A DNA stretch of 64,000 nucleotides, taken from a virus (lineage: Duplodnaviria; Caudoviricetes). The notes under the pieces were generated by a model that was given only the letters and a program-made list of their open reading frames with translations, was not told the DNA's origin and made no database searches. Each line of letters begins with the position of its first letter. Positions within the stretch are counted from its first letter, which is position 1. Where the stretch lies: positions 17,322 through 81,321 of IMG/VR virus record IMGVR_UViG_3300027210_000001. One strand, 5' to 3'. Below, one piece after another: positions 17,246-24,402 of this stretch. A program made the translations under genes and the position numbers.

Positions 17246-17445
17246 CTAATCAAAAACTAACTATGACTTTGATTGAGAAGCTTGAAGTAGAAGTTATTCA
17301 TGAAGAGGATGGTGGTTGCATTATCCGTGTTCATTGGGACAATGAAGATCCAGATCTTGAAGACTGGACAAACCTTGGTGAAGAAGGACAAAAATCCTTT
17401 ATCATTGATGCATTAACCAACGCACTTGCTTGCTATGTCGATTGA
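17242..17445 (+). CDS. hypothetical protein
   Basis: 67-aa acidic ORF. Confidence 0.7.
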   Translation: MTNQKLTMTLIEKLEVEVIHEEDGGCIIRVHWDNEDPDLEDWTNLGEEGQKSFIIDALTNALACYVD

Positions 17446-23114: not shown

Positions 23115-23143
23115 TTGACTTGCTTGAGTCTGCTTACTCTAAA

Positions 23144-23218
23144 GCACCTGGGTAGGATTCGAACCTACATCGCCCTGCAGCGCAGCAGCCGTACTATCCA
23201 ATTGTCTCGGACCAGGCG
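23144..23218 (-). tRNA. tRNA-like element B (non-canonical anticodon arm)
   Basis: Acceptor CGCCTGG/CCAGGTG, T arm GTAGG-TTCGAAT-CCTAC, D-loop-like AATTGGATA; anticodon arm CTGC-TGCGCT-GCAG has a 6-nt loop. Confidence 0.6.
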
Positions 23219-23225
23219 GGCAAGA

Positions 23226-23705
23226 TTAACAATTTGCAAATTCTCCAAAATATGTTCTTGCAGCTTTTTCATAGGCAAGACGAGCAAGTAAAGGACACTC
23301 AAATGTTCCTAAATATTTTTGTTTACCGTTTATTCTAATTTGAGCTGTATATTTCCCATTTAAAAGTTTTCTAAATCCTTTACTATTTTTATTTGCATTG
23401 TTTTGAGAACGAGTTGCTTTTCTTAAATTTAAAATAAAATTCTCAGCGGGATTGCGTGATATATGCTCTATTTCTAAATCTCCTGGGTCTTCTCCATGAA
23501 CGTACATCCACGCAATACGATGTGCTTTATATTTTTTACCATCAATCACAAGCAGCAAGTAACCGCAATCATCTAAATTACCTGCTACTTGTCCTGCTTT
23601 ACCTCTTCCTCGTGAAGTTTTTCTAATAAAAACTCCTGTATTTTCATTGTAATCAAACAATTCATGCAACCGTTTTTGTGGGGGAAGTGTAATTGACTTT
23701 GGCAT
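23226..23705 (-). CDS. HNH homing endonuclease with AP2-like C-terminus
   Basis: AHRIAW...IEHISRNPAENFILNLR and YTAQIRINGKQKYLGTF; AT-rich. Confidence 0.88.
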   Translation of the reverse strand: MPKSITLPPQKRLHELFDYNENTGVFIRKTSRGRGKAGQVAGNLDDCGYLLLVIDGKKYKAHRIAWMYVHGEDPGDLEIEHISRNPAENFILNLRKATRSQNNANKNSKGFRKLLNGKYTAQIRINGKQKYLGTFECPLLARLAYEKAARTYFGEFANC

Positions 23706-23735
23706 TTTAAAATATTAAAGAGTAAGCCAGGTGAA

Positions 23736-23806
23736 TCAACCGTGCTGGAATCGAACCAGCTATCTAACTCCCTTGTCGGGGTGTCCTGCCACTGGACTAC
23801 CGGTTG
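23736..23806 (-). tRNA. tRNA-like element A (non-canonical anticodon arm)
   Basis: Acceptor CAACCG/CGGTTG, T8-A9, D arm GTCC-AGTGGCA-GGAC, T arm GCTGG-TTCGATT-CCAGC; anticodon arm only CCC-CGACAA-GGG. Confidence 0.7.
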
Positions 23807-23811
23807 AGTGA

Positions 23812-24057
23812 CCCCCAGGTTTGTGCATCATCCTTAAACCATATTGTTGGCGCCAACAAAATGGTCTATGTATAGGAGCTAAGCATAGGGGGTGTTACTG
23901 ATTCGTCGCGCTTGCCAAGTGGGTCGAGGGCGCACCAGGGAATCAATCTGCGAAGGTAATTAAACCTCCGGCCTAGAAACCCAGGACTTCGATGATGGAT
24001 CAGGTGTATCGCCTTCTAGGCTATCTGCCTAACGCGCACAGGGACCTGGCCTCTATC
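23812..24057 (-). ncRNA. unidentified multi-helix structured RNA (~245 nt)
   Basis: No ORF; closing helices CCAGGT/ACCTGG and TGTGC/GCACA enclose at least five internal helices; extended -10 promoter upstream. Confidence 0.7.
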
Positions 24058-24064
24058 ACTCAGA

Positions 24065-24073
24065 ATTATAACA
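24065..24073 (-). promoter_or_regulatory. extended -10 promoter TGTTATAAT
   Basis: Perfect TGnTATAAT ~7 nt upstream of the structured RNA. Confidence 0.7.
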
Positions 24074-24089
24074 AACTTATTTAATGTTT

Positions 24090-24377
24090 TTACCATGTAG
24101 GTGCACCGGGTTTACCTTTAACTTTGCCACCGCCGCCGCCAGAGCTAGGTTTGTTAATTGAAGGGGTAGCAGAGCCTTTACCTCTGCCACCGCTGCTAGA
24201 GCTAGGTTTGTTAATTGAAGGGGTAGCAGAGCCTTTACCTCTGCCACCGCTGCTAGAGCTAGGTTTGTTAATTGAAGGGGTAGCAGAGCCTTTACCTTTA
24301 CCTTTGCCGCCGCCACCAGAGCTGGGTTTATTGATTGAAGGTTTGCCAGGGCGGCCACCAAAATTGTCGCGTGTCAT
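24090..24377 (-). CDS. Gly/Lys/Ser-rich repeat protein
   Basis: Start MTRDNF; 19-aa unit GSATPSINKPSSSSGGRGK; TAGAAT -10 box at 24396-24401. Confidence 0.7.
   Translation of the reverse strand: MTRDNFGGRPGKPSINKPSSGGGGKGKGKGSATPSINKPSSSSGGRGKGSATPSINKPSSSSGGRGKGSATPSINKPSSGGGGGKVKGKPGAPTW
24141..24341. repeat. 57-bp tandem repeat (3 units plus a diverged partial)
   Basis: Units begin at 24141, 24198, 24255; diverged partial at 24318. Confidence 0.9.
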
Positions 24378-24402
24378 GTTTATGTTTAAAAACATATTCT
24401 AA

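Follow-up and report, generated by a model that had tools for sequence, protein, structure and literature searches.

AbiF, a HEPN ribonuclease toxin, was shown in 2025 to be restrained by a small RNA (PMC12373285, PMC12737573). The RNA, which carries the abiF motif (RF03085; also known as AbiFr or RCd22), directly binds and neutralises the toxin in cis as well as in trans (PMC12373285). The same antitoxin is covered by PMC12737573, which also proposes AbiF as the ancestor of Cas13 and reviews cryo-EM work placing single-stranded bulge bases of the RNA at the AbiF active site. A phage copy of an RNA antitoxin is known from Pectobacterium phage phiTE, whose pseudo-ToxI was shown at the bench to mimic ToxI and neutralise ToxN (PMC3594212). 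Here we describe an abiF-type motif embedded in a longer, multi-module phage RNA. It lies on the - strand of a 64,000-nucleotide stretch (hereafter the window; positions 17,322 to 81,321 of IMG/VR record IMGVR_UViG_3300027210_000001), where positions 23812-24057 had been singled out in an earlier note as a structured RNA. The window is part of an 81-kb viral contig akin to Synechococcus phage S-EIVl, a freshwater cyanophage.

The element is a composite non-coding RNA of ~320 nucleotides (nt), structured and conserved, on the - strand behind a conserved promoter box. From 5' to 3' it consists of a 5' hairpin, a domain of two hairpins plus a pseudoknot (the middle domain), an abiF-type motif and an anticodon-less tRNA mimic, which begins 3 nt past the abiF-type motif. 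Positions 23812-24057 (-) lie between a repeat-rich open reading frame (ORF) of 101 amino acids (24395-24090) and the tRNA-like unit (23807-23735) and are non-coding, the sole overlapping ORF being one of 30 amino acids on the + strand. When viral contigs were searched with motifs of the tRNA-like unit and of the first conserved hairpin, S-EIVl and more than 20 related viral contigs were recovered as homologues; compared loci, viral or cyanobacterial, are labelled with L-numbers. A metagenome scan with a pattern one base off the D-loop type of the window returned five loci. Compensatory changes are plentiful among the homologues; as the earlier note had proposed, this is a genuine structured phage RNA, and it is conserved and adjoins a tRNA-like unit. 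Relatives differ from one another by whole blocks gained or lost at fixed junctions, and no module is common to all of them: L021, L034 and L035 are without the first two-thirds, and L007, L008 and L072 carry one to three additional blocks.

The last third of the stretch (23811..23893, -) is an abiF-type motif of the RF03085 type with an enlarged loop. Its outer stem ACCCCC/GGGGGU (23893-23888 with 23816-23811) and inner stem UGC/GCA (23885-23883 with 23826-23824), both absent from the earlier list of helices, give the layout ACCCCC-UA-UGC...GCA-CAAACCU-GGGGGU, with the 3' bulge CAAACCU at 23823-23817. The described abiF motif has the same build, namely a 6-7 base-pair (bp) outer stem, a 1-2-nt spacer, a 3-bp inner stem and a single-stranded, asymmetric 3' CAAAY bulge, and all of these structural elements are found here. 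When the module is folded alone (z = -3.0), its minimum-energy structure is exactly this arrangement. Covariation in the stems extends across phages and cyanobacteria, and diverged phages retain the bulge. The motif is flanked by GUAAC (23898-23894) on the 5' side and CAC on the 3' side, matching the flanks GUAACA and YACU of cyanobacterial AbiF leaders.

Four relatives match RF03085 itself at the same position (gathering score 37), with 49.7 bits for L072, where the match lies directly before the tRNA-like unit, 47.8 for L039, 46.6 for L005 and 40.9 for L035. Model R1, built from 54 abiF motifs from outside this phage group and containing 16 invariant columns, scored canonical relatives at 54, 53 and 53 bits, L120 at 31.6 bits and L010 at 27.5 bits (E 7e-6). 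L010 carries a shorter insert in the loop, on either side of which its sequence equals that of the window, and the junction sequences of the window recur in both L010 and L120. Taken together, these similarities indicate that the 3' module derives from the abiF family.

The canonical loop is 11 nt long, with conserved CUCUCAACGAU, and is present in L005, L072 and L039 at the same position. The window has a loop of 56 nt instead, UUAGCU-(45 nt)-AUGAU, in which the central CUCUCAAC is replaced by a hairpin, while both stems, the CAAAC bulge, the flanks and the CU...GAU loop ends are retained. The inserted hairpin (45 nt, 23832..23877, -) contains the 16-bp palindrome TTGTTGGCGCCAACAA (23859-23844), on which the earlier note had already drawn a long hairpin. 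That hairpin holds up among homologues: it is kept with its palindrome in L009, and in L055 and L068 the stem ACCAUUUU...AAAAUGGU is kept with a different 6-nt tip palindrome, GAUAUC or GACGUC in place of GGCGCC; L005 is without it. Relatives with hairpins at the same loop position exceed the canonical length by 12, 15, 45-46 or 62 nt.

A hairpin in the loop is also found in hosts. Of 401 cyanobacterial genomes sampled, 31 contain Abi_2 (PF07751) at scores exceeding the Pfam cut-off, several of them of ~2 megabases (Mb), a size typical of picocyanobacterial genomes. At these loci the reading frame of AbiF is immediately preceded by the abiF RNA, which itself has a TGTTATAAT-type promoter in front of it. 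Five other cyanobacterial AbiF leaders (L271:2163-2217(-), L273:1332-1385, L274:1325-1378, L276:1332-1388 and L277:120-176) have the form ACCCGCC-A-AGG-CUA-(hairpin)-U-CCU-CAAAC-U-GGCGGGU and share with the phage form the loop hairpin and both flanks, GUAACA on the 5' side and UACUC (consensus YACU(C)) on the 3' side. None of the five matched RF03085 at E <= 0.1, so the abiF family is broader than its Rfam model. Model R3, built from these five host RNAs only, finds phage RNAs at the correct place, flanks included, with 31.7, 30.2, 23.0, 20.7 and 20.2 bits. Since the host subclass also has a hairpin in its loop, it is plausible that the form seen in the window is active. A Tychonema genome with the 20-nt core pattern of the motif gave no abiF match in a whole-genome search, and when the leader of L008, the largest relative, was compared by BLAST with the 401 cyanobacterial genomes, the only matches were two marginal ones of 30 nt.

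The phage locus differs from described abiF loci in its surroundings. The motif does not lie upstream of an AbiF gene, and none is found at a distance: Abi_2 has no match at E <= 1 in this contig, and neither S-EIVl nor any of four relatives with a completeness rating of 100% gave one. When the ORFs that lie downstream of bacterial motifs were used to build an AbiF profile, it matched at one of 261 viral loci versus 12 of 12 cyanobacterial controls. Further differences are the loop length (56 versus 11 nt), the embedding in a longer multi-module RNA, and the tRNA mimic that follows the phage copy where a toxin gene or a U-tract would be expected. The three features of an antitoxin mimic, namely likeness to a host RNA, absence of the toxin from the phage and its presence in the host lineage, are all found.

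We propose, with slightly better than even confidence, that the phage RNA is a decoy that disarms host AbiF and is released by tRNA processing. The host polymerase would transcribe the unit early in infection, and RNase P would cut at the 5' end of the tRNA mimic, leaving behind the abiF-type RNA, its 3' tail short and defined. The freed RNA would then occupy the host AbiF dimer, replacing the short-lived antitoxin RNA of the host itself; with the nuclease kept off, infection would not be aborted. More speculatively, the upstream modules may stabilise the RNA, and palindromic loops (in the second hairpin of the middle domain and in the inserted hairpin) may pair two RNA copies to fit the dimeric toxin. 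A precedent is pseudo-ToxI, where a phage likewise carries the RNA antitoxin of a host but not the toxin and would be expected to block a ribonuclease that aborts infection; it differs in that ToxN is not a HEPN AbiF, in its 36-nt repeat pseudoknot, and in that the mimicry proposed for the window RNA is inferred (PMC3594212). An abiF small RNA was annotated in Synechococcus phage S-CREM1 (OP535465), with no function proposed (PMC9964418). That copy, too, is an orphan motif in a cyanophage tRNA cluster, 4 nt upstream of tRNA-Gly; unlike the window RNA, it belongs to a T4-like myovirus and is a canonical 37-nt motif (51.6 bits) with neither the upstream pseudoknot domain nor the loop insert. RNA anti-CRISPRs are reportedly solitary repeat units that mimic CRISPR repeats (Camara-Wilpert et al. 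2023). They, too, are phage imitations of the RNA with which a defence nuclease associates, but their targets are Cas effector complexes and not a toxin-antitoxin pair, and they are not known to be linked to tRNAs. No published proposal of a phage-encoded abiF-motif decoy was found in the literature searched.

Several points weigh against this proposal. The copy in the window itself is undetected by Rfam (even at E <= 10), by R1 and by R3, so that we place it in the abiF family as a derived member by its position and by a chain of intermediates, not by a direct score. It has other bases at half of the loop positions that never vary in canonical motifs, and because the centre of the canonical loop is lost, AbiF binding appears less certain for the window copy than for its relatives. 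AbiF was found in only ~4-8% of the sampled cyanobacterial genomes. The AbiF system as known has no role for the middle domain or the tRNA mimic. In T4-like cyanophages, moreover, the tRNA mimic occurs alone, 2-130 nt past tRNA-Thr or tRNA-Gly and without the abiF motif, and the unit may thus have a purpose beyond AbiF. Binding, processing and an effect on AbiF are all predicted here from sequence.

The tRNA mimic (23735..23807, -; z = -3.3 when folded alone) folds as a cloverleaf with acceptor, D and T arms. It encodes no CCA and is called by ARAGORN as 'tRNA-??? (ca)'. Its anticodon arm consists of a 3-bp stem and an invariant GACAA loop in place of a 7-nt anticodon loop, and its score for tRNA (RF00005) is under the Rfam threshold. 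The mini-stem covaries (CCC/GGG, GCC/GGC, GGC/GCC, with a U-A pair in L005). The mimic is widespread in cyanophage tRNA clusters, including S-PM2 (L011:1495-1570), S-RIM8 (L012:1503-1580) and L014-L033, and is unannotated in both named phages.

The link between abiF-type motifs and tRNAs is seen well beyond the close relatives of the window. Among the matches listed, viral and bacterial contigs with the canonical 20-nt core each number more than 120; a same-strand tRNA starts 11-17 nt past the core in 51 of 126 viral versus one of 114 bacterial cases, and 34 of these 51 viral tRNAs are tRNA-Arg(UCU). Downstream of other viral cores lie tRNA-like units that go uncalled by ARAGORN. The association is not an artefact of the search pattern, because 16 contigs found only by the pattern of the first hairpin of the middle domain also carry the canonical core, 43-143 nt downstream. 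In six viral loci (L309, L310, L313, L341, L366 and L396) the tRNA that follows the abiF motif has a long, intron-like insert (...gccttaaacataaatggagcgtcataaaggaaactttatg...) after the anticodon-loop position.

This arrangement could also be explained without any role for AbiF, if the RNA were the structured leader of a small tRNA-like operon, with hairpins that stabilise the precursor and guide its processing by RNase P and RNase E. Without exception, tRNA-like units or tRNAs come after the RNA, its modules come and go among close relatives, and L037 manages with a leader of only ~70 nt that lacks the abiF motif. A plain processing hairpin would not, however, be expected to keep the AbiF-invariant loop and bulge bases, which are kept in relatives retrieved with unrelated patterns, nor to have the same flanks as host AbiF RNAs; the near absence of the motif from bacterial tRNAs also argues against this explanation, which we consider unlikely. 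The viral counts bear as well on the idea that the RNA is a decaying, now functionless remnant of a captured host AbiF locus that lost its toxin. The resemblance of motif and flanks to host AbiF leaders and the disruption of the loop in the window by the insert fit that idea, but covarying stems, a bulge kept across diverged phages, an intact core in so many viral contigs, a fixed distance between motif and tRNA and a conserved promoter box make it scarcely credible.

A second tRNA-like unit lies at 23145-23218 (-), with a 6-nt 'anticodon' loop (CUGC-UGCGCU-GCAG), and between it and the tRNA mimic at 23735-23807 is an ORF for a 159-amino-acid homing endonuclease with HNH_3 and AP2 domains (23226-23705, -). 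This gene is an insertion, because in L004-L009 the two mimics are directly adjacent; in one published case, a homing endonuclease in a phage tRNA region has been linked to amplification of anti-defence loci (PMC13096335). The sequence GCUUACUCU just past the first mimic (23719-23727) is complementary to AGAGUAAGC just past the second (23132-23140); their pairing would bridge the inserted HNH gene, at both borders of which CCUGG is duplicated. Beside the tRNA mimic of T4-like clusters we also observed a ~60-nt element, GAUAGAGGGUAAGCCUCUGUUAUAUCCUUGAGGUAUAUUACGCUUACUCC (L012:1652-1710, L014, L016, L022, L023 and L029), which has the same GAUAGAGG start as the window RNA.

The middle domain (23989-23899, -) precedes the abiF-type motif and comprises two hairpins and a pseudoknot. 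The first hairpin, hp1 (CCUGG-GUUU-CUAGG, 23972..23985, -), has an invariant AAGU just before it, and its tip pair covaries across the family (G-C, G-U, C-G, U-G and A-U). The second, hp2 (CGGAGGU-UUAAUU-ACCUUCG, 23951..23970, -), was correctly identified in the earlier note and shows many compensatory changes, with both sides changed in three of seven pairs. Its loop holds a short palindrome: a 4-nt palindrome (UGAUCA, GAUC, GGCC or UUAA) occurs in 22 of 26 hp2 loops, a count that no shuffle set matched (p < 5e-5), and in none of the 26 hp1 loops. The pseudoknotted part (23899..23950, -) has three helices and a conserved single-stranded GGCAA. Two of the helices, UGAUUC/GAAUCA (23945-23940 with 23904-23899; compensatory, both-side changes in four of six pairs) and GCGC/GCGC (23933-23930 with 23911-23908; supported by homologues), make up an arm that the earlier note had described; the crossing of UGAUUC/GAAUCA with a third helix, CAG/CUG (23950-23948 with 23938-23936), had been missed.

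Covariation was assessed in 12 distinct aligned relatives over five helices (hp1, hp2, CAG/CUG, UGAUUC/GAAUCA and GCGC/GCGC). The results show that 92.5% of cells are paired and that both sides are changed in 11 of 26 pairs; the covariation score was reached by none of 500 shuffles, and pairing falls to 32-46% when partners are slid by one to three columns. The middle domain is a real pseudoknotted structure, a conclusion that follows from covariation and from the shuffled and slid controls, not from folding energy (z = -0.7). It is restricted to a subset of loci, being found at eight of 100 viral abiF loci. A middle-domain model (R2) found nothing in 151 cyanobacterial genomes, a search in which few candidates were scored and which shows little. 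We considered whether the pseudoknot domain could be a second, degenerate abiF motif and rejected this, as R1 gives no match and the likeness is limited to CCUC. In S-PM2 (L011:1420-1500) there is a comparable hp1-hp2 pair, CCUAGGGG.../CGGGG-AAUUGAUCGC-CCUCG, and then, immediately ahead of the tRNA mimic, a hairpin, GGGGAGU-CCUCUAAC-ACUCCCC, whose loop recalls the abiF loop CCUCUCAAC but which is without the 3' bulge.

The strong conservation of the pseudoknot domain, for which no partner is known, raises the question of whether the RNA serves a different protein, as a partner or sponge for another phage or host factor such as an RNA-binding defence protein or an RNase. The abiF-type fold would then have been re-used, with the loop insert marking the change. 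The lost loop centre of the window copy points in this direction, and the invariant GACAA loop of the tRNA mimic looks like a protein-binding site. The neighbouring genes, however, vary between relatives, and no candidate protein is linked to the RNA; short-insert intermediates still match models built from AbiF-linked RNAs, and host RNAs adjoining AbiF have a loop hairpin as well. We regard this alternative as decidedly unlikely. An extension of the decoy proposal, quite unlikely in our view but less so than a switch to a different protein, would make the transcript a modular array of RNA decoys against host defences, directed at AbiF and at other trapped proteins or RNases, with modules shuffled like anti-defence genes. 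The pseudoknot domain and the GACAA-loop tRNA mimic might then each trap another RNA-binding defence protein or RNase, and the palindromic loops, UUAAUU or UGAUCA in hp2 and GGCGCC, GAUAUC or GACGUC in the inserted hairpin, might join RNAs in pairs through loop-loop contacts and so fit them to dimeric targets.

The 5' hairpin (23997..24051, -; z = -1.6 when folded alone) is built on a stem of GGCCAGGU (24051-24044) with ACCUGAUCC (24005-23997) and encloses an inner hairpin, UAGGC-AGAUA-GCCUA (24031-24017, -). The local pairing YCAGGU/ACCUGR is complete (6/6) in 11 of 12 homologues, with a U-A pair switching to C-G, and the inner hairpin shows an A-U to G-C change in L072. Four relatives (L004, L005, L010 and L055) are without a 26-nt insert in the loop of the 5' hairpin.

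These local pairings decide against another part of the earlier note, which had pictured a single closed RNA with at least seven helices, a large globally folded molecule of a new class whose 5' and 3' ends are joined. GOLLD and ROOL were its precedents, and they are indeed phage-encoded structured RNAs near tRNA genes; the window RNA is much smaller, modular instead of one large fold, and without a match to them in Rfam. The proposed closing helix CCAGGU/ACCUGG is perfect in the sequence of the window, yet its 5' strand pairs with the nearer ACCUGA (24005-24000), and the distal partner retains only 3-5 of six pairs in five homologues; the distal ACCUGG drifts from the 5' strand because its changes track those of its partner in the abiF-type stem. 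UGUGC/GCACA and CUAUG/CAUAG do not survive comparison either, as both use bases of the conserved abiF-type stems and bulge and their partners are absent in relatives. The 8-bp helix GCCUAGAA/UUCUAGGC competes with the covarying hairpins UAGGC-AGAUA-GCCUA and CCUGG-GUUU-CUAGG and is absent or non-complementary in L004, L005, L055 and L072. The lack of an Rfam match in the window, the many helices and the adjoining tRNA-like unit speak for a single global fold; with closing and 8-bp helices not kept in homologues, modules independently present or absent and the 3' third belonging to a known family, we find such a fold very unlikely.

Searches of Rfam with the whole window at gathering thresholds and with 1.8 kb at E <= 10 placed no family over 23812-24057. 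The earlier exclusion of tmRNA, RNase P RNA, 6S RNA and group I introns is borne out, as none of these matched at E <= 10 in the window or in larger relatives; the same is true of manA, wcaG, GOLLD and ROOL at E <= 10. Resemblances to RNase P RNA (GAAGUCC and ACAAACC, similar to P4 strands), to tmRNA (a possible tag reading frame) and to signal recognition particle (SRP) RNA (GGUCAGGUCC) were followed up and rejected, since partner strands are non-complementary and there is no Rfam match; ARAGORN also reports no tmRNA. The folding energy of the whole stretch is modestly better than that of shuffles (z = -2.08; + strand z = -1.54). The suggestion in the earlier note of a new class of non-coding RNA is correct for the middle domain and the anticodon-less tRNA mimic, which match no Rfam family and are newly described elements, and not for the 3' third, which is a derived RF03085 member.

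The promoter was located from sequence and conservation. An extended -10 box, TGTTATAAT, lies at 24065..24073 (-), and transcription would be expected to start at ~24059-24057, at GAUAGAGG. Nearly all relatives (among them L004-L010, L037, L055, L072 and L120) have TGTTATAAT, TGTATAAT or TGTTATGAT followed by GATAGAGG, often directly after a terminator hairpin. A simple promoter scan does not call the TGTTATAAT box, which is without a -35 box, and our assignment therefore relies on its conservation. Two AT-rich cyanobacterial genomes of ~1.9 Mb (L281:1300-1400 and L282:1300-1400) have AbiF behind TGTTATAAT-N6-7-GATAGTA and an abiF motif; the spacing from promoter to GAUAG there equals that of the phage RNA (TGTTATAAT-N7-GATAGAGG).

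In three studies, freshwater RNA libraries yielded short contigs that span this RNA and nothing else. They are a weak sign of expression, because carried-over DNA is possible and coverage does not prove transcription; uncovered parts of the stretch are likewise no evidence. The contigs show additional blocks, one of 72 letters exactly at 23989/23993 and one of 52 letters exactly at 23896/23900; both sites are module junctions. An optional module between the pseudoknot domain and the abiF motif, with a repeated CCUGAAGC motif (for example UGCAUGAAACGCCCUGAAGCAAGUAAAGCCCUGAAGCUUUGCAUCAUGC), is present in L048, L088, L120, L068 and L008 and sits exactly at the site of the 52 extra letters. Upstream of the RNA, the 101-amino-acid ORF (24090-24395, -) consists of near-identical repeats of ~20 residues rich in Gly, Ser, Lys and Pro, which are also visible in the DNA; it has no Pfam match, and its position is held by a different lysine-rich protein in relatives.

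The comparisons presented here define two new elements, a pseudoknotted RNA domain that covaries and an anticodon-less tRNA mimic that is widespread. They also reveal a gap in Rfam, whose RF03085 model misses the hairpin-in-loop subclass in hosts and phages alike. Orphan abiF-type RNAs are common in cyanophage-like viral contigs, where, unlike bacterial copies, they are nearly always fused to a tRNA or tRNA mimic, a pattern that was previously unreported. It suggests a general route by which phages may produce RNA decoys, namely through borrowed tRNA-processing machinery.

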